Shown piece after piece: positions 27,847 through 45,983 of a stretch of DNA of 64,000 nucleotides (position 1 is the stretch's first letter; each line of letters starts with the position of its first letter). The notes under the pieces are model-generated. The model was not told the DNA's origin and did no database searches. It worked only from the letters and a program-made list of their open reading frames with translations. The stretch is from positions 32,001 through 96,000 of IMG/VR virus record IMGVR_UViG_3300025101_000019. One strand, 5' to 3'. This DNA comes from a virus. The position numbers and the translations under genes were made by a program.

Positions 27847-28292
27847 TATACTCTACCCTTCTTTTTGTTTATTGCTTTCATTAAACCTGAATAATCTTTT
27901 GTTAATGCGTTTCCTACACCAGAACTCATCACTGCGTTTACATCAACTGCTTTACCATCAGAATCTTTTGTTGGTATCATTGATTGTGGTGTTGATGGAC
28001 TACTAAGTCCCATCATAGATGCCATAGTTGCTCTATCCATTCCTTGTGCATTATTTGCAGTCATAGTTCCACCACCCATTGTTGGCCAATGGTCAACTGT
28101 TTCATTTAATAGGTCTGAGAATTTCCCACCCTTAAATTTAACATTTGGCTTCTTAACCTTTTTTGTTGGTTGAGGTGTACTCATTTCTTGAATAATAGAT
28201 TCACGAATGGCAAGTTTCTCTTTTGCCACCTGCTTCTTTACTTCTTCTTTTATTAACAATCGTATTGCTTTTACAAATTTATTAGTGTCCAT
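27846..28292 (-). CDS. Hypothetical protein
   Basis: ORF with upstream TATTTAT motif; C-terminal ALTKDYSGLMKA. Confidence 0.6.
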   Translation of the reverse strand: MDTNKFVKAIRLLIKEEVKKQVAKEKLAIRESIIQEMSTPQPTKKVKKPNVKFKGGKFSDLLNETVDHWPTMGGGTMTANNAQGMDRATMASMMGLSSPSTPQSMIPTKDSDGKAVDVNAVMSSGVGNALTKDYSGLMKAINKKKGRV

Positions 28293-28315
28293 AATAATAA
28301 ATAGTTTTATTTTAA

Positions 28316-29374
28316 TTAATTTTTCATTAAATTTAACTCTGTCGTTATTTTAGCGATTCTTGCTTTGATTCCAGTACATTGTCCTTTCAATGCACCACCT
28401 GCGGAAGCAAGTGGGGCGTTTACTCCTACATATTTGTTAGGTGTTGTACTAATGTTTGGAATAGCTCCATTTGAAGCAAATCCACTAACCGCATTATTTA
28501 ACGCATCGAGTTCGTTTTTAATTTCGTCTATTTGTGTAAACATATTATCCATCGCAGCTTTCCATGCTGGTGTTGATATATTCACATCTTCTGTTCCTGC
28601 CAATATAACTCTATCCTTTTTAGCATTTAATAATACTCGGTCAGAGTTAACCATAAATTGTGGGTCACCCCATAGGTTAGCAGGTGTTACTCCTAAAGAA
28701 AATGGATGTGCTTGACTTAAGGATATAGTTTGTTTGGATGTCATATATAATGAAGTATCATCCTCATCAACTTCTTCTATAACAAACTTATTCCAACCAC
28801 TTGAATTTTGAGTATTTCTTAGTATTGTAATTGGTGATGTAGAGTCACCTTTCCAACTTGGTTTTTCAGTTGTCTTAGCACCTTGTGGAGTATATCCAAG
28901 TCTGATTGATTGTCCAAACCTTCCTTCAACTATCACATCACCACTAAATGGTTGTAGTGCGGATACACCACCCACCTCTTCAAATCCAAAATCAAATTGA
29001 AAAGGTTTAGTAGAACTTGCTTGTGGATTACCTGCAGATGCTTCTGCATATCCACCCGAGTTAGCTGAATCACCTTCAAGTGTTGTATATCCTGATGGTA
29101 ATGCGTTATGATTTGTATTCCTTTGTAATGACAACGGAGTTACATAATACATTCGTGTTCTACTTGATAGTGCGTTGGAATCAGGACCTCTTTCATTAAT
29201 GAGGTATACCATTTCCCCTGCAACGGGTACTCTTTTTATGTTGGTATCCAAAGGCCATGCAATTTTTTCGACCTTACTTCTACCTGATGCCATGTTTACC
29301 TCAACCTTAATTGAGTAAAGTAAATCGGAATCAGAGTCTTGTAGTTTTACTTCTGTAACGAGACCTGTGGCCAT
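28316..29374 (-). CDS. Baseplate hub/spike-like protein (gp5/gpV-like, no lysozyme seen)
   Basis: OB-fold-like PVAGEMV, GDVIVEGRFGQSIRLG, beta-repeat NSDRVLLNAK; next to gp25/gp6. Confidence 0.55.
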   Translation of the reverse strand: MATGLVTEVKLQDSDSDLLYSIKVEVNMASGRSKVEKIAWPLDTNIKRVPVAGEMVYLINERGPDSNALSSRTRMYYVTPLSLQRNTNHNALPSGYTTLEGDSANSGGYAEASAGNPQASSTKPFQFDFGFEEVGGVSALQPFSGDVIVEGRFGQSIRLGYTPQGAKTTEKPSWKGDSTSPITILRNTQNSSGWNKFVIEEVDEDDTSLYMTSKQTISLSQAHPFSLGVTPANLWGDPQFMVNSDRVLLNAKKDRVILAGTEDVNISTPAWKAAMDNMFTQIDEIKNELDALNNAVSGFASNGAIPNISTTPNKYVGVNAPLASAGGALKGQCTGIKARIAKITTELNLMKN

Positions 29375-29733
29375 TATACTTCTCCTGTTTCTTCTTTAGG
29401 TAGGTCTTTTTCAACCTCGTCTATGGCGTCCATCAATTGTCTTTTCTCTTCATCAGACAACATATAGTTTCCACCATCGGTGTTATTATCTTTCATCATT
29501 CGTTGAACAATTGCTGCAAGTTTTATTAATGCGTCATCATTCCTAACGGATATGTCGAGATACTCCTTTATTAAAGGAACAACTACTGAGGCATCATTTA
29601 GATTCTTGACCATTGGTTCAAGTTGTGCAATCAGTAGTTTTATTTGTCGGTCTTTCTTTTTCTGATTAGAATAAATGTCAGCCATTACATCTGAAAAAGA
29701 TTTACCTTTAAAAATTTCATCGTCTTTGGTCAT
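29374..29733 (-). CDS. Hypothetical helical protein
   Basis: Tightly packed ORF. Confidence 0.55.
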   Translation of the reverse strand: MTKDDEIFKGKSFSDVMADIYSNQKKKDRQIKLLIAQLEPMVKNLNDASVVVPLIKEYLDISVRNDDALIKLAAIVQRMMKDNNTDGGNYMLSDEEKRQLMDAIDEVEKDLPKEETGEV

Positions 29734-30448
29734 TGAATTCCTCGATTCTATGATTTATTTCTAAGTGTCCTTTTGAGACAAAATCGATGTACAACTCTTT
29801 ATATACATTTTTTAATTTACCAATTACTTTTGTAATATATTGGGTTTGAACACCAGTTCTCTCTCTAATAAGTATGTAAAGAGCCTTTTTGTTGTAAGAA
29901 TATAAATCATGTCTTGTTCTAAATAACTCTGTAACTGAGTCTGCTATTTTCTGTTCTCTATCTTTAGAAAACAACTTGTATAGATTTGCGTCAACATATC
30001 TAACATAGAAATCAAAAAAGTCTGCTATTGATTCTTTTAACTCCTTATCGTAAACTTCGTTACCTATATTTCTTGAACTATCAATATACTTTACTTCGGT
30101 CTTTTGTTTCATTCTTTGATAGTTCTGATTATTCTCATTGAATAAATAGTTTCTTGCTACCACAGTAAAATAAGAAAACGCCCTACCATTAGCTCCATTA
30201 AATTTATGAATCTTTTGGTTTAGGAACGCAACAACATTAGCTTTGACATCATCATATGGGACATCGAAATAGTATGTCTTATATGTGTGAATAACATTTT
30301 CAGCTAACTTGTCAAATGGATAATGAATAAATCTATTGTAGATTTTATTCTTCATCTTGTAGTCGTCTGAATTGTTGTATGCGTTAATAGCTATTTCAGT
30401 AATCTTCGTGAAATACCTTTTACTCCTTTTCCTTCGTTTCCTCGGCAT
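29717..30448 (-). CDS. Phage late sigma factor (T4 gp55-like)
   Basis: KLAEN...YDDVKA...IHKFN...RAFSYFTVVARNYL resembles sigma region 2 of gp55-type proteins. Start taken at MPRKRRK. Confidence 0.65.
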   Translation of the reverse strand: MPRKRRKRSKRYFTKITEIAINAYNNSDDYKMKNKIYNRFIHYPFDKLAENVIHTYKTYYFDVPYDDVKANVVAFLNQKIHKFNGANGRAFSYFTVVARNYLFNENNQNYQRMKQKTEVKYIDSSRNIGNEVYDKELKESIADFFDFYVRYVDANLYKLFSKDREQKIADSVTELFRTRHDLYSYNKKALYILIRERTGVQTQYITKVIGKLKNVYKELYIDFVSKGHLEINHRIEEFNDQRR

Positions 30449-30707
30449 AATAATTTTCAAGTTTTTCTATGATTGTATATAACTGCTTAAATACAAATCC
30501 AGTTTCATCATCATTTTCAAATGCTCCTTTAGTATCTAAGTCCTTCATCTTTTGCATTGAGTCATCTATTTCCTTTGCAAAGTCAGATATAAATTTTTCT
30601 TGTTCTTCAACAACTTCTTCAGCAGCTTCATTCTTTCTCAGTAAATTCCAAGTAGTGAATGCAAATACTATTGTTGTTAAAGACAATATAATAATTGTTT
30701 GTACCAT
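30420..30707 (-). CDS. Small membrane-anchored protein
   Basis: N-terminal TM helix followed by a coiled coil. Confidence 0.6.
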   Translation of the reverse strand: MVQTIIILSLTTIVFAFTTWNLLRKNEAAEEVVEEQEKFISDFAKEIDDSMQKMKDLDTKGAFENDDETGFVFKQLYTIIEKLENYYAEETKEKE

Positions 30708-30711
30708 AATT

Positions 30712-31503
30712 TTAATCTTCTACGATATCTTTAAATGCATCAAATACTTTTTTAGTATCCTCAGTCGATGTCTTTGAGGTATTAAATGTATCTGATAATT
30801 TTCCTTTTGTAGATGGTCTTCCGTTTGGATTACGAGTTGACTTTACTGGCGCCATCTCTTTTTGCCATCTTTCATACTCATATCTAGCTGCGTTGATATC
30901 TGCTTGATGCATGATATGAGGTAGAGGTGTTTTAAGGGTTTGGTCTTTATTGAAAGTAATATAATACTTTTTATTAGACTCATCATACAACCCATCTGTA
31001 AGTTGTATTCCTATCCACTCCTCTTCACTACACTTAACTCCAAAATAGTTTAGAAGATAAAAACTTCTAAGACTATGGTCCATATAATTTAGGTTTGGAT
31101 TTGTTTTGTAAATCTTACCTTGGTTTTTAACATGCCACTCGGAGTCGTTTTTAATATAGTGGTCTTCTTCAACCGAACCAAGTTTACCTAAGTCGTGGTG
31201 TAACGCCGTAAATATAAGAGACTCCTTACTGAGTCCTTCTAAATCAAGACCCCACTTTTCTTGTAGGTCATATATACTAAGTGCGTTTCTTGTAACTCTA
31301 AGTACATGGTCAATGTATCCACCAGGAAATGCATTATGATAATGTTCAACTGATGATGCAGGTGTATAAATTATTCTCTCTTCAAAATGGTCATACATTT
31401 TGTTTAGTGATTCTAATCTCTCACCTGTAAATGTTTGGTTGATTAATTTTCTAAATTTTTCGTAATTACTTACTAATTCTTCTGCAGTAAAAAAGTTTGT
31501 CAT
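30712..31503 (-). CDS. HD-domain phosphohydrolase (YhaM-like)
   Basis: HYHNAFPGGYIDH, ALHHDLGK, MDHS, HQAD. Confidence 0.85.
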   Translation of the reverse strand: MTNFFTAEELVSNYEKFRKLINQTFTGERLESLNKMYDHFEERIIYTPASSVEHYHNAFPGGYIDHVLRVTRNALSIYDLQEKWGLDLEGLSKESLIFTALHHDLGKLGSVEEDHYIKNDSEWHVKNQGKIYKTNPNLNYMDHSLRSFYLLNYFGVKCSEEEWIGIQLTDGLYDESNKKYYITFNKDQTLKTPLPHIMHQADINAARYEYERWQKEMAPVKSTRNPNGRPSTKGKLSDTFNTSKTSTEDTKKVFDAFKDIVED

Positions 31504-31504
31504 T

Positions 31505-32173
31505 TTATATTATTTTATCTATTATTCCAAGTTCTAATGCTTGTTCTGAAGATATAAAGTAATCATTGGATGATATACTTTCCCAATGTTCTTTATCTTT
31601 CTTTGTACACTCAGCCATAAGTTGATTACAATCACTTTCTAATTCTTCACTAAATTTAGCATTTGATTTTACATCACTTAGTTTACCTACTACAACAGTA
31701 GACAATTGGTGTACCATAATCTTTGAGTGTTTGGATGCCATACGAGTACCCGTACCACACGCCAGTAATAATGCTCCTGCGGACATCGCAGCTCCTCTAA
31801 CAATGATATTGTATTTGATACCTTGTTTTTCTTGAGACCTCATAAAGTCAATTAACCCAAGAGTTTCAATCACATCACCGCCTGGTGTATTCAATAAGAT
31901 ATTGAATGTCTTAACATCACCACCATTGAGTTTGTTTAGTAATCTTGATTTTGATATAACATCAAATGTCATACCAGATTGGATTTCACCTTCTATAATA
32001 ATAACATTATCTTGAGTGTCTATTCCATAATCAAAATGTCTGAAGTGTTTTCTGTCAGGGTCTTTATCTGGTGCTGATGCTTGTTTTCTTTCAGCCTCAC
32101 TTAACTCTTTATCATATCTAACTTCAAGTTCGTCTTGACTTGTAGTTGTCTCATTTCCGTATAATTCGTCCAT
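31505..32173 (-). CDS. clpP: ClpP-like protease
   Basis: LNTPGGDV, GAAMSAGALL (Ser), IMVHQ (His), DYFISSEQALELGIID. Confidence 0.85.
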   Translation of the reverse strand: MDELYGNETTTSQDELEVRYDKELSEAERKQASAPDKDPDRKHFRHFDYGIDTQDNVIIIEGEIQSGMTFDVISKSRLLNKLNGGDVKTFNILLNTPGGDVIETLGLIDFMRSQEKQGIKYNIIVRGAAMSAGALLLACGTGTRMASKHSKIMVHQLSTVVVGKLSDVKSNAKFSEELESDCNQLMAECTKKDKEHWESISSNDYFISSEQALELGIIDKII

Positions 32174-39019: not shown

Positions 39020-40279
39020 TTAGTAAGGAGCTTCTACTTCATCAGTATTAAACAAATCTTCATTCTCTGGAACCTCACCCAAAAACTTTTGGATGAATTG
39101 TTTCATATAAACTCTTTCAGACTGAGCCCCACCACTTTGGTCAAACATTGGGTAGATAGTAATCTCAGCGGCTTCACCTAATTCGAAACCATCGTAGAGT
39201 AGAGAACCAATCTCAACTGCCGTTCTCGTAGACAATGCGTTACTAAGTTTTGGATTTTCAGACATCAAGTCACTTCTTGTCATTGAAGTAATCTCAGCAA
39301 CATTAGACAAAATGTTTTCATCAACCGAAGGATACATCATTTGAAGAAGTTGAGTTTCCTCTTCGTGAGTTAGAGTGTCCATTTCGATAACAGTAAATCT
39401 GTCTAACATCGCTCTGTCAAGAGCTCTTGTAGCGGTGTACTCATTACCGATGTTAGCCGATGCGATGAACGAAACACCATCAGCGACCTTGACAACAGGA
39501 GCGTCAGCCGCCTCATCTAATCTCAAGTATCTTTGACCTTGGTCAAGAACCGTCATCAGAATGTTGTGAGCCTCAGGGTGAGCTCTCGTCAACTCATCAA
39601 GAATGATAACAGTATTTGGTGTTTGAATTGCCTTAACAAAAGGTGAAGTGTTGAACACCGTACCTTGTTTGGAATCGAACTGAGTGTTACCAATCAGAGT
39701 TGTTCTTGGGTCTTGAGTAGAACCAAGGTTGATGATGAAGGTGTTATAACCTTCGAGTGAATTAGCCGCTGCTTTAGCCGCCATAGTTTTACCACAACCG
39801 GCAGGGCCAGTCATCATAATGTTTTTACCTCTAAGAATGTTTCTTACTAAGTACTTCCACTTTAGGGACTGCATGAATAACATCTTAGGTTTTAGACCTT
39901 CTGACTTTTCGTGAATGAAACTAAGAACATCAGAAGTCATCGCTTCAGTAGCGACAGAAACAGGTTCAGGTTTAGAATACTCAAGAGCGACAAGACCACC
40001 ATTAGGAGCGGTGAAGTTACCAACTGGCTCAAGGTTTTCTTCTACCTTAGATGCCGGAACTCTTGTGAAGTCAATCTTACCATCACTTAGTCTACCACTA
40101 ACTCTAACTTTGAACCCATACTTGTCGGGTCTTTTGAAGGATTGTCTTACCCTTTTGTAAAGGTTAGTACCTTCTTCATTGAACTCAGGAATCAAGAACT
40201 GCTTTCCTGCCGAATCTTCAAATAGAAACTTTCCATCTACTTGAACAATCTTTCCGAATACTGATTTTTGTGCTTTCAT
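39020..40279 (-). CDS. MoxR/CbbQ/NirQ-family AAA+ ATPase
   Basis: GPAGCGKT, IILDELTR, FIASAN, LDRAMLDRF, STR. Confidence 0.88.
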   Translation of the reverse strand: MKAQKSVFGKIVQVDGKFLFEDSAGKQFLIPEFNEEGTNLYKRVRQSFKRPDKYGFKVRVSGRLSDGKIDFTRVPASKVEENLEPVGNFTAPNGGLVALEYSKPEPVSVATEAMTSDVLSFIHEKSEGLKPKMLFMQSLKWKYLVRNILRGKNIMMTGPAGCGKTMAAKAAANSLEGYNTFIINLGSTQDPRTTLIGNTQFDSKQGTVFNTSPFVKAIQTPNTVIILDELTRAHPEAHNILMTVLDQGQRYLRLDEAADAPVVKVADGVSFIASANIGNEYTATRALDRAMLDRFTVIEMDTLTHEEETQLLQMMYPSVDENILSNVAEITSMTRSDLMSENPKLSNALSTRTAVEIGSLLYDGFELGEAAEITIYPMFDQSGGAQSERVYMKQFIQKFLGEVPENEDLFNTDEVEAPY

Positions 40280-40326
40280 TATTTTTACTTTTTAATTATT
40301 AATTACTCTTATTACTTATTACTCTA

Positions 40327-40382
40327 CTAAAGTACGACATTAATTTGACAATTCCAAATTTCTAATGTTAAGAAATTGTTAA
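40327..40382 (-). promoter_or_regulatory. Promoter with phased TTAACA-N5-TTAACA box
   Basis: TTAACA-N5-TTAACA-N7-TTTG-N20-TACTTTAG. Confidence 0.7.
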
Positions 40383-42526
40383 ATTTTCACCTCGAACTTT
40401 TTATTTAATGTTTTGGCTAACTGAGTCATATTATCAACAGAGATGAACTCTGAATCCTTACCATACATTTCCTCAAACTGAGTCTTACTACTTCCATAGT
40501 ATCCATCAGAGATAAAGTAAGATAGGACACCGACACCTGCGTTTCTAACTTTCTTAACTTGGTCAGCCGTATGTTTTACTGCGTAGTCACCACCATAACT
40601 AATTTCTTTGTTGTCAAAGCCAGGCCATCCATCTGAGAAATTGATTAGGTAACTTTCTACACCATTTTTTGTATTGGTCAACTCTTTTAGAATCGCTTCA
40701 AAACACAACCCTTCAGGAGTAGTTCCACTTGGTGAAATATATTTAAACAAGTTTACAATTTTAGAAAACTTATCTTTTCTTGAATCATATGCAATCATCA
40801 TTAGAGGTTGACATCCACTTCCACTATTGTAGTAGATACCTCTATAAGAAATCACTACATTCATATTGTCGGTCATCGATGCCGCCTTTGCAATCGCTAC
40901 GGCTGCCGTTTGAGTGTTGTACCATTTGTCACCACCCATAGAAGAACTTGCGTCAATCGAGATGTGTACTAAACAAGGAGTCGCCGTATTGATATTGATT
41001 TGGTCAAAGATTTGAAAGTTACCGAAACCAATCTCGTGTAACATTCTACCATTTAACTTACCACTCTTCATTCTTGGAGTGTTGTCGATTCTCTCTTCGT
41101 TTCTTGTCTTAAGTTTCTTACCTAAGATAGTTCCAAGTGTAATACCTTTTCTAACTGCCTTATCGTTTGAATCAACTCTCCAACTTCCTAAGTGACCAAT
41201 CATGCCTGAGTCAATCAATGATTGATTTACATTTCTGATTACATAAGTCTGAACACCTTGAGATTGATTTCTCCAATAACCTTGGTCAAGTCCTTTGCCT
41301 GTAACCTCAGTTTCGATATCAGCTTTATCAAGAACATCGATTTTCTTTTTGTCAGCCTTAGTGATTGTAGTTTTTTTGATATCACCATCTAAGAACTTCT
41401 TTTGTTTCTTGATAGCGTTATCTAACATTTTCTTTTGTTTATCATTCAAAGGTTGGTAGTCACCGCCAGCACCATTCTTGTTACCGAGGCCAGTTGGTTG
41501 AGGACTACCTTCTTCGGTAGAAGCATCATCCTTACCATCATCACCCTTAGAGTCTTTACCTTTACCACTTCCGTTACCTTCCATTGGTGAACCATCAGAA
41601 GTTGGTTTGTCATCAGAAGACATCTCAGACTTACCATTAGTATCATTGTCATCACCACCCATTTCTTTTTCAGATGACTTAGACTCATACTCAGCGTCTT
41701 GTACATTTTCGTGGATAATCATATAAATCTGACCTGCCACTTCGAGTGCGTCATTTGATGTTCTTAGTCTTGAAATATTTTTAAGGTCAAGAAGATTCCA
41801 AATCTGTTTCAATCCTTTAAGAGCTTTGAGGTCTCTGTTAGAGTTAGTGATGTTAATCAATCTAAACATATAAGAATCCCAAGTCTCGTCTCTATGTTCT
41901 GAAGACTTAAGACCTTTGTCCACTACATTAGAGTGGAAGTACTTGTTATACATTGACTCATAGTACCCTCTATAACCAGGCGCTGATTTGTAAATGTAAT
42001 TGTCAATTCGTCTGTCCTCAACATAGTTAAGTAAATCTTTTAACTTACTTACAATGTCTCTTCTTTTTGACCACCATGCGGTAGAATACTCATCACCATC
42101 TTCAACCATTTGAATATATGATGATAAAGTTTTTACCCAAGGTAACATAGATTTTGGAAACCCTTGAAGACCATTGTTGTCCATCAGAGTTTTTAACATT
42201 TCGAAGTCAGTAAGTTTGATGTGAGAACCTTCGTGAAGTGCTAACCCAACCACAGGGTCGAATTCTTTGTCATTCATTTTAGCTGATATAACAACCTCTT
42301 TACCATCGGTGTAACTATCATCACCCCTACCATTAAAGGTAACGGGAATAGGTTGGCCTGTAACGATACTAACGAAGTTACTGATTGACTTTTTGTATGC
42401 CATCAACTTCATTAAGTCATTAGACTTCTTCTCAATTTTGTTAGGTTCATTATCCGTATCCCATATTGACTTGTCAAGCCAGAAGGAAGAATAATTCATG
42501 TGGTTTGTATTTCGCATAATTCTCAT
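40379..42526 (-). CDS. vWA protein with N-terminal HExxH domain (CobT-like partner of the AAA ATPase)
   Basis: LALHEGSH, NYVEDRRID, acidic linker, MIDAS DASSSM, TPEG, FSDG. Confidence 0.85.
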   Translation of the reverse strand: MRIMRNTNHMNYSSFWLDKSIWDTDNEPNKIEKKSNDLMKLMAYKKSISNFVSIVTGQPIPVTFNGRGDDSYTDGKEVVISAKMNDKEFDPVVGLALHEGSHIKLTDFEMLKTLMDNNGLQGFPKSMLPWVKTLSSYIQMVEDGDEYSTAWWSKRRDIVSKLKDLLNYVEDRRIDNYIYKSAPGYRGYYESMYNKYFHSNVVDKGLKSSEHRDETWDSYMFRLINITNSNRDLKALKGLKQIWNLLDLKNISRLRTSNDALEVAGQIYMIIHENVQDAEYESKSSEKEMGGDDNDTNGKSEMSSDDKPTSDGSPMEGNGSGKGKDSKGDDGKDDASTEEGSPQPTGLGNKNGAGGDYQPLNDKQKKMLDNAIKKQKKFLDGDIKKTTITKADKKKIDVLDKADIETEVTGKGLDQGYWRNQSQGVQTYVIRNVNQSLIDSGMIGHLGSWRVDSNDKAVRKGITLGTILGKKLKTRNEERIDNTPRMKSGKLNGRMLHEIGFGNFQIFDQININTATPCLVHISIDASSSMGGDKWYNTQTAAVAIAKAASMTDNMNVVISYRGIYYNSGSGCQPLMMIAYDSRKDKFSKIVNLFKYISPSGTTPEGLCFEAILKELTNTKNGVESYLINFSDGWPGFDNKEISYGGDYAVKHTADQVKKVRNAGVGVLSYFISDGYYGSSKTQFEEMYGKDSEFISVDNMTQLAKTLNKKFEVKI

Positions 42527-42543
42527 TTTTTAATCTTACAATA

Positions 42544-42599
42544 TAAAGATAAGACATTTTTGTCTAATTGCCAAATTTCTAATGTTAAGAAATTGTTAA
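42544..42599 (-). promoter_or_regulatory. Promoter with phased TTAACA-N5-TTAACA box
   Basis: TTAACA-N5-TTAACA-N7-TTTG-N20-TATCTTTA. Confidence 0.7.
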
Positions 42600-42736
42600 A
42601 TTTTGCCTTTATGTTTTTCTTTACGAGTATAGTGTTTTTTGCTTTTATGTGGCATTGGGACTCGGAGTGAATCTTTCCACTCTTGAAAAGTAAGCGTTAC
42701 TTGCTTTAATTTAATATCTTTCTTTTCTTTACCCAT
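42596..42736 (-). CDS. 46-aa basic protein, ArfA-like C-terminus
   Basis: Not in ORF track. MGKEKKDIKLKQVTLTFQEWKDSLRVPMPHKSKKHYTRKEKHKGKI; has its own promoter. Confidence 0.55.
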   Translation of the reverse strand: MGKEKKDIKLKQVTLTFQEWKDSLRVPMPHKSKKHYTRKEKHKGKI

Positions 42737-42762
42737 ACTGCCGTATCTCTTTCTTTACTATG

Positions 42763-42818
42763 TAAAGATAGTGAATTATATCGGTATTGCCAAACTTTAA
42801 ATGTTAAAATTTTGTTAA
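42763..42818 (-). promoter_or_regulatory. Promoter with phased TTAACA-N5-TTAACA box
   Basis: TTAACA-N5-TTAACA-N7-TTTG-N20-TATCTTTA. Confidence 0.7.
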
Positions 42819-42846
42819 AGTTTTCAACACTATATGTTAATAACTA

Positions 42847-43197
42847 TTATAGTTTACCCGCGTCTCGTAGTTTTTTACGGATTTTGGTGGCGGATATATC
42901 GTGAATATCGCCTGGTGGAATGTGTTCTATTATATCGTAACCAACACCACGACCATAGTTTACAGATTCAATATCAGGTATTATTATTATTCTAACTCTA
43001 CCATCATGTATAAGGTCTTGAAGTTCTATATGTAGATTGTCGTATACTTCTTGTGGTGTATATGGTTGGTTCTCATTTGGTTCAACATCACGAATGGCAA
43101 TACATACATTCTTGCCTTCGTTTAATCTTTGGTCAATCAACCAACGATGACCATCATGCCAAGGTTGCCATCTACCTATGAATAGTGAGTACTTCAT
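42847..43197 (-). CDS. Cytidylyltransferase-like (HxGH) nucleotidyltransferase
   Basis: FIGRWQPWHDGH; ISATKIR. Confidence 0.8.
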   Translation of the reverse strand: MKYSLFIGRWQPWHDGHRWLIDQRLNEGKNVCIAIRDVEPNENQPYTPQEVYDNLHIELQDLIHDGRVRIIIIPDIESVNYGRGVGYDIIEHIPPGDIHDISATKIRKKLRDAGKL

Positions 43198-43609
43198 TTA
43201 ATGTTTGTATTGGTAGTTTATCATCGGTACATAACCATATATCGTCTGTACCTATTTCCATTGCGTCTGTATGGTAGTGTTCTCGTCCTCTAACTTCTTG
43301 TGTAAATAAGTAAAACATTTTAGGGTTTAAATCTAATAGTTCATCTCGTACATCTTTGTATGGGCCAACAACTGATATGACTACATGAAAGTTTTTATGG
43401 TGAAGGAATCTGGCAATAGTAGTAACCTTTCTCATATTGTTCTTACGACCCTCTTCACTATAATCAGTATTACTAAATACCTCTCTCATAAAATCACCAT
43501 CGATATGTATTACGGGATTACCAATTGTCTTATACTCGAAGTGTTCTTTTAAAAGTTTTGCTATTGTTGTCTTACCTGCGCCGGGTTGACCATAGAACCA
43601 ATATATCAT
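43172..43609 (-). CDS. cysC: Adenylylsulfate (APS) kinase-like protein
   Basis: WFYGQPGAGKTTIA, IDGD.MR, DYSEEGRKNN, VGPYKDVR. Start at the ATGA overlap. Confidence 0.75.
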   Translation of the reverse strand: MIYWFYGQPGAGKTTIAKLLKEHFEYKTIGNPVIHIDGDFMREVFSNTDYSEEGRKNNMRKVTTIARFLHHKNFHVVISVVGPYKDVRDELLDLNPKMFYLFTQEVRGREHYHTDAMEIGTDDIWLCTDDKLPIQTLNEVLTIHR

Positions 43610-44241
43610 TCGTACAACCAATTGTCAAGTTCTTCGACTTGAATTAAACCTAAGTCTTCTTCTCGATTTGCATCCATGATATTAAACTCATAAAATGGAT
43701 TGTGTCTTTGTACGAGTGGTGTATCCATAAAGAAATTATTTTGAACAATACCAATACCCCAATCAGTATCTACTACACAAACTTTTAAATCTCTTCTACT
43801 TGTTCTTAACTCGTATATTGCTTTCCATACCGTACCATTCCATGGTTGATACTCACCATCTACCATATAGTTTTCTCTTGCCATATGAGCTGATGGTGGA
43901 TTACAATCGTGTAAAAGAATATAACCATTTGGATTTAGATATCTAAGAGAGTTGTGAATGTCTTGTTTTACTTGATACGATTTGTGTAACCCATCTATAA
44001 AGATAATATCAAATTTATCGTTAGGTCTTCTATCATCCATAAATCTAAAAAACTCATCAGAGGTCATTTGATGGTCAACGGGATTCTCTTCAAACTCAAC
44101 GCCAGGGTCAACACCTTCTTTGTGTTCACATTGTACTTGGTCAAAACAATGAACAGGATTACATACACCAATTTCAAGATAACTTTTGAAGTCGTTCTCT
44201 TTTATTAGTTTGTTTATAATATCAAATCTATAAGTATACAT
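43606..44241 (-). CDS. Class I SAM-dependent methyltransferase (Methyltransf_24-like)
   Basis: YLEIGV, GVDP, FDIIFIDGLH, LNPNGYILLHD. Start reassigned to 44241 because the ORF-track extension overlaps tRNAs. Confidence 0.8.
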   Translation of the reverse strand: MYTYRFDIINKLIKENDFKSYLEIGVCNPVHCFDQVQCEHKEGVDPGVEFEENPVDHQMTSDEFFRFMDDRRPNDKFDIIFIDGLHKSYQVKQDIHNSLRYLNPNGYILLHDCNPPSAHMARENYMVDGEYQPWNGTVWKAIYELRTSRRDLKVCVVDTDWGIGIVQNNFFMDTPLVQRHNPFYEFNIMDANREEDLGLIQVEELDNWLYE

Positions 44242-44255
44242 ACTAAATTTTATTG

Positions 44256-44327
44256 TAGCCCCTAGGAGAATCGAACTCCTCTTTCCAGGATGAAAACCTG
44301 GCGTCCTAACCGATAGACGAAGGGGCC
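44256..44327 (-). tRNA. tRNA-Glu(TTC)
   Basis: GGCCCCT/AGGGGCT acceptor, CCAGG-TTTTCAT-CCTGG anticodon arm, TTCGATT T-loop. Confidence 0.93.
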
Positions 44328-44337
44328 AGTATATTAG

Positions 44338-44409
44338 AGCGGAAAGGTGGAACTGCCCCACCATCTCCACATTGGTAATGTGGCGAGTTTCTTTTAACTC
44401 TTTTCCCGC
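44338..44409 (-). tRNA. Non-canonical tRNA-Gly-like RNA, anticodon ACC
   Basis: GCGGGAA/TTTCCGC-T; D arm GAGT-TAAAAGAA-ACTC; CCACA-TTACCAA-TGTGG; T arm GGTGG-GGCAGTT-CCACC. Confidence 0.85.
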
Positions 44410-44413
44410 TTAG

Positions 44414-44485
44414 AGCGGAAGGTTGGAACTGCCCCAACTCCTTTGTACTGGATGTACAACGACTTTCTTTTAAGTCTTCTCCCGC
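44414..44485 (-). tRNA. Non-canonical tRNA-Gly-like RNA, anticodon TCC
   Basis: GCGGGAG/CTTCCGC-T; D arm GACT-TAAAAGAA-AGTC; TTGTA-CATCCAG-TACAA; T arm GTTGG-GGCAGTT-CCAAC. Confidence 0.85.
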
Positions 44486-44495
44486 GATTGTTTAC

Positions 44496-44527
44496 ACAAT
44501 ATACAAAATAAAATTGACATGGCCAAA
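44496..44527 (-). promoter_or_regulatory. Sigma-A-type promoter directly upstream of the atypical tRNA-Gly pair
   Basis: TTTG-N20-TATATTGT ending 10 nt before the first tRNA. Confidence 0.7.
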
Positions 44528-44534
44528 TTTTTAG

Positions 44535-44608
44535 TGGAGAATATCGGAGTCGAACCGATGACCTCTTCGGTGCAAGCGAAGCGCTCTAGCCATCTGAGCT
44601 AATTCCCC
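44535..44608 (-). tRNA. tRNA-Ala(TGC)
   Basis: GGGGAAT/ATTCTCC with G3-U70; CTTCG-CTTGCAC-CGAAG; TTCGACT T-loop. Confidence 0.95.
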
Positions 44609-44617
44609 AATAAAGAT

Positions 44618-44887
44618 TTATCCTTTTAACAATTCCTTTTCATCCGATTCGGATACAGGAATGTCGTGACCATATTCTTTACCAAAGTTTTTAGTAAGTA
44701 CCGACAACTTGCCAGTTGCGGATTCTAACTTACCTAATAACTTATCGATTTCTTCTGTGTGTTGTGGATGTTCACCTATCGCAACAGGTGATTCAAAGTA
44801 GATTGATAATGTCGCCCTTGCGTCCATTATTTCTGCAGTATACTTTGCCTCTAAGGCTTGGTATAATCTTCTTGATAATTTACTCAT
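44618..44887 (-). CDS. Hypothetical protein
   Basis: ATLSIYFESPVAIGEHPQH motif; TATTTATA upstream. Confidence 0.6.
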   Translation of the reverse strand: MSKLSRRLYQALEAKYTAEIMDARATLSIYFESPVAIGEHPQHTEEIDKLLGKLESATGKLSVLTKNFGKEYGHDIPVSESDEKELLKG

Positions 44888-44935
44888 AACAAATTTGTTT
44901 TTAATAGTTAACTTTATATAAATATAATTTTATTT

Positions 44936-45235
44936 TTAATCAACGCTATATAGATTATATTTTAGCGTTATCTCTTCATCACTTGGGATTGGTCTAAGTG
45001 TAAACAACATTAGATTCCCATCGATATCTTGTCTTACTTCACAATTGGGAGTATCACTATGATTTATGAATCCACCCAATGGTGTTCTGATATATCCGTT
45101 TTCAAACTTATCGTTAGGTATATGAGTGACTCCTATGAATCTTGCGTGTGGTAACGACTCAGTTGAATACAATCCTAACCCTTCAATTTCAGATTGTTTA
45201 ATTGTAACTTCTTTTGGTAGTGGTCTATATGTCAT
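44936..45235 (-). CDS. SET-domain protein (putative lysine methyltransferase)
   Basis: SEIEGLGLYS, GFINHSDTPNC, TLRPI..DEEITLKY. Confidence 0.85.
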   Translation of the reverse strand: MTYRPLPKEVTIKQSEIEGLGLYSTESLPHARFIGVTHIPNDKFENGYIRTPLGGFINHSDTPNCEVRQDIDGNLMLFTLRPIPSDEEITLKYNLYSVD

Positions 45236-45983
45236 GTGGTTGGGTTAATGAGTTATTATACATCTCTGTTCTGTATTGTACACCGACACATTCATTCAAT
45301 GCGAATGTAATCAAGTCTTTTTCAAAGATATAGTTGAGGTCTGTTCGTGGTGTTTCACAATATAATGCAGGTAGGAATTCGTCAATAACAAATATCATTT
45401 TTTTATACTTATCTAAATGATTCTCTACTAACTTTTTAATTCCGTTCTTACTTAACAACAATGCGTGAGTTTGATATGAGTAGCCAGGTTTACATATCAT
45501 ATCATCTATTGGAGTATCTTGAACACCTTGAAATCCTGTTTGAAGTAATCTACCTAAATAAAATAAATCATAGTTCATAGATTTTACTTTATCAAGTTGT
45601 GACCAATCCATAGGTTTTTCAAATACAAAGTCATCTTCATATACAAGTATATTATCATATCCATTCTTGTATGCATCTTCCCATACAGCGATATGAGATA
45701 GTGTACATCCAATCTCACCCAATGTGACATCTCTTTGCCAGTAACGATTAGCATTATCTTTTACATGGACATCACTTGTATTTAAGTTCCAATCTTTATA
45801 TGCTTCAATCCCCATCAATTGCATATGATGAGTTGTCAACTTCCTACCATCAATACCAAGTACTTCAAATGGAACTTCGTGTGGTAGTCCAACCTTGTCT
45901 ATCTCTTTTAGAATAGATGCGATGTGTTCATCACTCCAATCTAAACTAATAATGTATATCTTATCTATCGCCTTTTCGGTCAT
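45225..45983 (-). CDS. Glycosyltransferase family 25
   Basis: IYIISL, GIDG, GEIGCTLSHIAVW, VYEDD, DLFYLG, YSYQTHA, IDEFLP. Confidence 0.85.
   Translation of the reverse strand: MTEKAIDKIYIISLDWSDEHIASILKEIDKVGLPHEVPFEVLGIDGRKLTTHHMQLMGIEAYKDWNLNTSDVHVKDNANRYWQRDVTLGEIGCTLSHIAVWEDAYKNGYDNILVYEDDFVFEKPMDWSQLDKVKSMNYDLFYLGRLLQTGFQGVQDTPIDDMICKPGYSYQTHALLLSKNGIKKLVENHLDKYKKMIFVIDEFLPALYCETPRTDLNYIFEKDLITFALNECVGVQYRTEMYNNSLTQPHDI

Follow-up and report, generated by a model that had tools for sequence, protein, structure and literature searches.

In staphylococci, the non-proteinogenic (NP) tRNA-Gly NP1-NP3 are donors for the GNAT-fold enzymes FmhB, FemA, and FemB, and they are described as a lineage confined to staphylococci (PMC7826273, PMC3239215). 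[quoted passage not shown] A third system, reported in 2011, is a 76-bp tRNA-Gly-like ‘pseudo-tRNA’ with anticodon DCC that lies inside the mom homologue of Dehalococcoides ssrA islands, for which no donor function was proposed (PMC3146451). A literature search covering few subscription journals returned no report of a phage-encoded tRNA-Gly dedicated to Mom.

The window analysed here is a stretch of 64,000 nucleotides, bases 32,001-96,000 of a single 173,350-nt viral contig that is 95% complete by CheckV. By sequence, the phage is T4-like: its capsid protein shares 58% identity with the one from Microcystis phage Mel-JY01 and 52% with the one from Flavobacterium phage immuto. The best match of its Mom among isolates is Polaribacter phage P12002L, and the sequencing runs holding this stretch are marine. 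Its promoters resemble the Bacteroidota TTTG/-7 type and, together with the capsid relatives and the P12002L match, make a Bacteroidota host likely. The features of the locus, all on the minus strand, are as follows.

44534..44608 (-): canonical tRNA-Ala(UGC), the upstream neighbour of the tRNA-Gly pair
44496..44527 (-): phage promoter of the class TTTG-N20-TATATT, 10 nt before copy 1
44414..44485 (-): rewired tRNA-Gly copy 1, with anticodon UCC, A33, A8/U14, A18, T-loop GGCAGTT, U51-A63, and U73 (95.7 bits with model R1)
44338..44409 (-): rewired tRNA-Gly copy 2, with anticodon ACC (A34) and the elbow and T-stem features of copy 1, including U51-A63 (91.5 bits with model R1)
44255..44327 (-): canonical tRNA-Glu(UUC), the downstream neighbour of the pair
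43606..44241 (-): Methyltransf_24 gene, starting at ATG 44241

Each copy measures 72 nt counting U73, lacks position 47, and lies 4 nt from the other. Folded alone, each yields a cloverleaf (z ~ -4; 0 of 200 shuffles equally stable), as a preliminary description made from the sequence had proposed; the stem sequences, pair 7, T-loop GGCAGTT, A8/U14, A18, G19, and C56 are likewise as first described. That description also took the tRNAs to be hidden beneath a spurious ORF extension. The extension, 44370-44242, covers copy 2 and tRNA-Glu; the homologous methyltransferase of the sister phage G026 begins directly after tRNA-Glu, and the long ORF is therefore spurious, with its true start at ATG 44241. 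Low or pseudo scores from tRNA finders had been anticipated, and ARAGORN at default settings missed both copies, a lowered threshold being needed before it called them Gly(UCC) and Gly(ACC), while the Rfam tRNA model scored copy 2 alone, at 23.6 bits versus a cut-off of 29; no other Rfam family matches the two RNAs. Contigs from marine RNA libraries match copy 1 together with the promoter over 151 nt (depth 2) and a portion of copy 2 over 82 nt (depth 9), in neither case with mismatches; as they may stem from DNA carry-over and reveal neither ends nor strand, they are not taken as evidence of expression.

CCA is encoded in neither copy. The genome specifies a 1205-aa protein (28,285-31,902; L056:8289-11903) that joins a cytidylyltransferase-like domain to a PolyA_pol domain of the CCA-adding type and could, from its domains, mature CCA-less phage tRNAs; its presence profile is not specific to RNA-positive genomes. 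The Methyltransf_24 gene is also found in RNA-free relatives and thus falls outside the module formed by the RNAs and Mom. Around the tRNA cluster (window 39020-45983) lie a MoxR-like AAA ATPase and vWA pair and cytidylyltransferase-like, APS-kinase-like, methyltransferase, SET-domain, and GT25 genes, which occur in RNA-negative G026 as well, the SET gene being undetected there.

The preliminary description assigned the pair its own promoter. The promoter is real, but it is not particular to these RNAs: the minus strand of the genome bears the motif 19 times, mostly before genes, and the HTH-Mom operon, the second Mom, the polymerase, and the clamp/DruA-like genes each have a promoter of this class upstream. 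It precedes the RNA in many relatives too. Because the motif is common to both, co-expression of the RNAs and the Mom module is plausible.

Relatives of the RNAs are found by structure. A first strict pattern gave six chance matches, none tRNA-like; blastn with the pair as query, run on 50,697 phage records, returned chance matches only, and a model search of the cultured relatives Mel-JY01, immuto, and RM378 found no family member. A search pattern with all stem interiors free located the RNA in 30 viral contigs, usually as two per locus (27 of 31 loci). Across 33 distinct sequences, a set filtered for pairing although the unfiltered hits already pair fully in the acceptor and T stems, all 693 of 693 stem cells are paired, with 130 two-sided changes. 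Twelve of the 21 pairs change on both sides, the covariation score is reached by 0 of 500 shuffles, and compensatory changes occur in all four stems, in line with the initial view that the fold is under selection rather than in decay. Later scans of viral and metagenome contigs raised the family, which is one of aquatic phages, to at least 147 distinct members; figures per 147 below refer to the members listed.

The family has the 7/4/5/5 stem layout of the cloverleaf and carries the glycine identity and consensus set, (G10-Y25):G45, G1-C72, C2-G71, C35, C36, and U73, as defined for bacteria by experiment and by the tRNA-Gly consensus (PMC9976931). The preliminary description had seen this set in both copies, and it extends to the family: G1-C72, G3-C70, C35, C36, U73, G10, and Y25 are present in 147/147 members listed and C2 and G45 in 146/147, where many invariant columns are set by the search patterns (G1, G3, C35, and C36 are fixed by them; 70-73, 10, and 25 lie outside the second pattern). 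G19 and C56 are kept. Elsewhere, canonical residues are replaced by A8, U14, A18, G54, G55, and G58, and the family departs from the elongator features U8-A14, G18G19, U33, T54-Psi55-C56, and A58. A8/U14 and the GGC start of the T-loop, looked for in homologues following the first description, are family features. Positions 33 (A 81, U 61, G 4, C 1) and 34 (U 126, A 21) vary freely among the 147 members listed and are fixed by no pattern, whereas U51-A63 is present in 147/147 of them while the adjoining pairs vary. Selection appears to preserve the features read by the synthetase and to drop those needed by the ribosome.

The core has a parallel in E. coli tRNA-Sec, in which G8 lies with A21 and U14 (PMC7609411). 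U14-A21 is invariant in the family, and by this analogy A8 may form a triple with it, a purine-8:U14-A21 arrangement replacing U8-A14; unlike tRNA-Sec, the phage RNAs have neither the long acceptor stem nor the long variable arm. A few intermediates with a near-normal T-loop exist (L035:5445-5516 and L503:4964-5035), which suggests descent of the family from an ordinary tRNA-Gly(UCC). Many relatives carry a separate, fully canonical tRNA-Gly(GCC) beside the rewired RNAs.

EF-Tu binding was calculated with the published three-pair T-stem model, under which bacterial tRNA-Gly average -10.8 to -11.0 kcal/mol and the staphylococcal non-proteinogenic tRNA -9.5 kcal/mol (PMC3239215). The values for the 147 members listed are -9.5 (117 members), -8.1 (29), and -8.6 kcal/mol (1), and those for the canonical phage tRNA-Gly(GCC) in the same loci -10.1 to -11.2 kcal/mol; the penalty relative to the phage's canonical tRNA-Gly is thus a calculated and modest 0.6-1.7 kcal/mol. 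Given U51-A63, the loss of the TTC loop, G18, and U33, and the free variation at 33-34, the rewired RNAs are predicted to bind EF-Tu and the ribosome poorly.

The resemblance to the staphylococcal tRNAs is extensive: both keep the glycine identity set, lose the T-loop TTC, have a weak 51-63 pair, and occur in several copies beside a canonical isoacceptor; calculated EF-Tu binding is -9.5 kcal/mol or weaker in 147/147 members listed, and the proposed partner is again an aminoacyl-tRNA-dependent GNAT-fold enzyme. The differences lie in the details and the setting. The T-loop starts with GGC here, apart from two intermediate members, and with TGC or TGT in staphylococci; the T-stem has G49-C65 and U51-A63 rather than A49-U65 and A51-U63; and the A8/U14, A33, and A34 variants belong to the phage family alone of the two. 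Unlike their counterparts, the phage RNAs are virus-encoded in a genome without Fem proteins (PF02388/PF13480). As the staphylococcal lineage is confined to staphylococci, we regard the phage RNAs as its analogue. The Fem-type route raised in the preliminary description has no candidate enzyme in this phage: Fem (PF02388), Acetyltransf_6 (PF13480), and MprF-type acceptor families were not found in the 95% complete genome.

A profile search of the genome identified different GNAT genes, which surround DNA polymerase B, outside the window.

Genome 131,002-132,192 (L051:3006-4193), minus strand: DruA/DUF4338 gene (PF14236)
Genome 132,940-133,554: Mom gene (PF25680)
Genome 136,099-136,887: Mom gene (PF25680)
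Genome 136,874-137,626: Mom gene (PF25680)

The three PF25680 hits have E-values of 3e-34 to 3e-47, and one paralogue aligns to Mu Mom (PDB 8bv8) with an E-value of 6e-12. Like Mu Mom, the three homologues have the catalytic residues: all keep equivalents of H58, Y59, R111, S124, D149, and Y159, with R151 replaced by Lys or Pro. Mu uses host tRNA-Gly and one Mom, in contrast to the two or three paralogues, DruA-like GNAT, and rewired tRNAs found here. The third Mom paralogue, between polymerase and clamp (L051:4944-5555), is absent in the very close relatives L234-L238 (polymerase 95-99% identical), and the number of paralogues therefore varies from 1 to 3. DUF4338 has been described as a GNAT (PMC10853773). 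The DruA-like protein has no sequence match in PDB; its model (pLDDT 81) is a GNAT whose top match in two structure searches is Mu Mom (Foldseek E 3e-4; Z 10.9, rmsd 3.9, 169 aligned), a Z-score within 1 of ordinary GNATs. The ORF is single-copy and 58-75% conserved. The DruA-like protein is a candidate for a second tRNA-dependent modifier.

The RNAs and these enzymes are inherited together. Among 23 genomes at least 70% complete, 14 (this phage included) have both the RNA and Mom, nine have neither, and none is discordant; the DruA-like gene follows the same split. This agrees with the co-occurrence with Mom and GNAT genes that the preliminary description had suggested looking for. Most of the 23 genomes were recruited by capsid or polymerase and five through the RNA; several RNA-positive genomes are near-duplicates, and the Fisher p of 1e-6 for the 14/9 split ignores kinship and is not relied on. 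In an ORF profile, four of 193 ORFs, namely the three Mom genes and the DruA-like gene, occur in 7/7 RNA-positive and 0/3 RNA-negative genomes. Of 47 full-length polymerase loci, 33 have Mom together with the DruA-like gene and 14 have neither; the two never separate, and either could be the consumer of the RNA. In this genome, the RNA lies at 76.3-76.5 kb and the Mom genes at 132.9-137.6 kb. A distance of 55-87 kb between RNA and enzymes makes their co-inheritance notable. The tally does not include four RNA-positive, Mom-negative fragments, all without the polymerase region (G005, G016, G066, G067), or four Mom-positive, RNA-negative ones (G030, G032, G035, G051), which, judged by gene distances in complete relatives, appear to stop short of the tRNA cluster.

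The RNA-negative genomes do not form one clade (p-AU 2.5e-111). The trait changes four times, but branch support is good for only two of these phylogenetically independent contrasts, and a sign test would need more. G026 is a sister in the polymerase tree (87% identity): an HTH gene abuts its polymerase, Mom is missing, and the interval from tRNA-Ala to tRNA-Glu holds unrelated ORFs and no RNA pair. The filling of that interval, ~1.7 kb of small, unrelated ORFs, follows a promoter of the class described above (L353:14025-15790), and the place of the Mom genes is taken by a methyltransferase and a protein of 496 aa that matches no Pfam family (L242:8542-11406). In G029, whose tRNA cluster persists without the RNA, methylase-like and amidotransferase genes occupy the Mom slots; encoded there are an asparagine-synthase-like amidotransferase, N6/N4 methylase-like proteins, a PRTase, and a phosphorylase (L378:13088-19406, L379:2709-5387). 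The fillers in Mom-free relatives are candidates for other DNA-modification genes, and given those of G029 the Mom slot acts like a DNA-modification cassette open to exchange. This RNA is not a general requirement of Mom, since Mu and the Mom-bearing Polaribacter phage P12002L, in which a model search found no member, do without the family.

We consider it likely that the two RNAs are a phage-encoded, ribosome-avoiding glycine donor for Mom-type DNA hypermodification. The dedicated non-ribosomal Gly-tRNA pool first suggested has thereby gained support from the three PF25680 genes, the DruA-like GNAT, and their co-occurrence with the RNA. In general terms, the proposed pathway has three stages. 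(i) Supply: the RNAs and the replication/Mom operon would be transcribed from a shared promoter class, the RNAs processed at both ends and provided with CCA, as the retained G19-C56 and the phage's CCA-adding-like domain suggest, and charged by the host glycyl-tRNA synthetase, as expected from the complete identity set. (ii) Diversion: weak EF-Tu and ribosome binding would keep this Gly-tRNA away from translation, so that its activated glycine would be available to the GNAT module for DNA modification encoded beside the DNA polymerase. (iii) Modification: the two or three Mom paralogues, by homology, would glycylate adenine N6 to 6-NcmdA, and the DruA-like GNAT may act as well, so that phage DNA would be shielded from restriction without competing with translation.

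An unlikely alternative is that the RNAs are non-ribosomal donors mainly for the DruA-like GNAT, acting on another target (a base, a protein, or the RNA itself), while Mom uses host tRNA as in Mu. The DruA-like gene shares the perfect profile of Mom (33 loci with both, 14 with neither), and its single copy, conservation, and Mom-like model fit a consumer of the RNA. Against this, tRNA use is not known for DruA-family proteins, the Z-score does not stand apart from that of ordinary GNATs, the need for Gly-tRNA has been demonstrated for Mom, and in Dehalococcoides islands it is mom that contains a tRNA-Gly-like gene (PMC3146451).

We give slightly less credence to an unusual yet working translational tRNA-Gly that tops up a pool drained by Mom, co-inheritance then reflecting demand. 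A full-length, L-shape-compatible cloverleaf with G19-C56, A37, and a seven-base anticodon loop would suit such a role, as would the position among canonical tRNAs, the match of the UCC and ACC anticodons to the phage's two main glycine codons (GGT 2269, GGA 1015), and the acceptance of all isoacceptors by Mu Mom. A top-up role would, however, favour canonical sequences, whereas U33 is replaced in 86/147 members listed, 54, 55, and 58 are G, U51-A63 is fixed, and many relatives keep a canonical tRNA-Gly(GCC) alongside.

Phage tRNAs are known to counter tRNA-cutting defences, and the preliminary description had also entertained decoys. It is improbable that the RNAs act in this way, as decoys or repair-resistant stand-ins facing host anticodon nucleases or tRNA-sensing defences: variability at 33-34 and the CCA-adding-like domain are compatible with such a role, but it does not account for why the glycine identity set at the acceptor end is strictly retained, why the weak EF-Tu pair is fixed, or why the RNAs are lost together with Mom and DruA genes 55-60 kb away, and the analysis yielded no positive support for it. 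Decaying pseudogenes or integration scars, a reading that the failed ARAGORN and Rfam thresholds might invite, are refuted by the covariation (693/693 cells, 130 two-sided changes), besides the fixed length, conserved promoter, and at least 147 distinct members.

The locus contributes a family of full-length RNAs whose elbow is distinct and which, though physically unlinked from Mom, are lost together with it. It also contributes a profile across the genome that singles out four GNAT genes, and a syntenic empty site. If the ribosome-avoiding donor reading is right, a phage class tied to DNA hypermodification would extend dedicated non-ribosomal tRNAs from the staphylococcal cell wall to viruses and would answer how Mom-type enzymes draw much Gly-tRNA without starving translation. 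It would also give some phage tRNAs a concrete function, in an abundant family missed by standard tRNA finders, point to DruA/DUF4338 proteins as candidate tRNA-dependent GNATs, and offer naturally ribosome-avoiding tRNA bodies testable in a simple coupled GlyRS-Mom assay. More tentatively, a widespread aquatic T4-like clade may possess a complete private donor channel. In it, an orthogonal tRNA-Gly class with a new elbow (A8:U14-A21, A18-G55, G54/G58) would evade EF-Tu and be recognised selectively by several GNATs, among them the DruA-like protein as another tRNA-dependent DNA modifier, whose product would be a base different from 6-NcmdA; the Druantia DruA family would then also have a biochemical role.

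Related tRNAs occur in other settings. The Dehalococcoides pseudo-tRNA, compared by its description, is likewise tRNA-Gly-like, flagged as pseudo, and mom-associated, but it is embedded in mom, whereas the RNAs here lie 55-60 kb away in a tRNA cluster. Two incomplete bacterial MAGs, in which Mom or DruA was not detected, carry a tRNA-Gly(GCC) with the A8/U14/GGCAGTT elbow, placed next to tRNA-Cys and a canonical tRNA-Gly(UCC) in arrays of 21-26 tRNAs in 8 kb with an HNH gene (L484:5649-5720, L477:4139-4210). A 484-kb phage (LR756508) with weak Mom-domain hits encodes two differently deviant tRNA-Gly with weak 51-63 pairs (L314:1501-1575, L315:1501-1572), possibly a case of convergence. Finally, the tRNA cluster of one relative (G031) encodes a tmRNA (L352:1242-1636).
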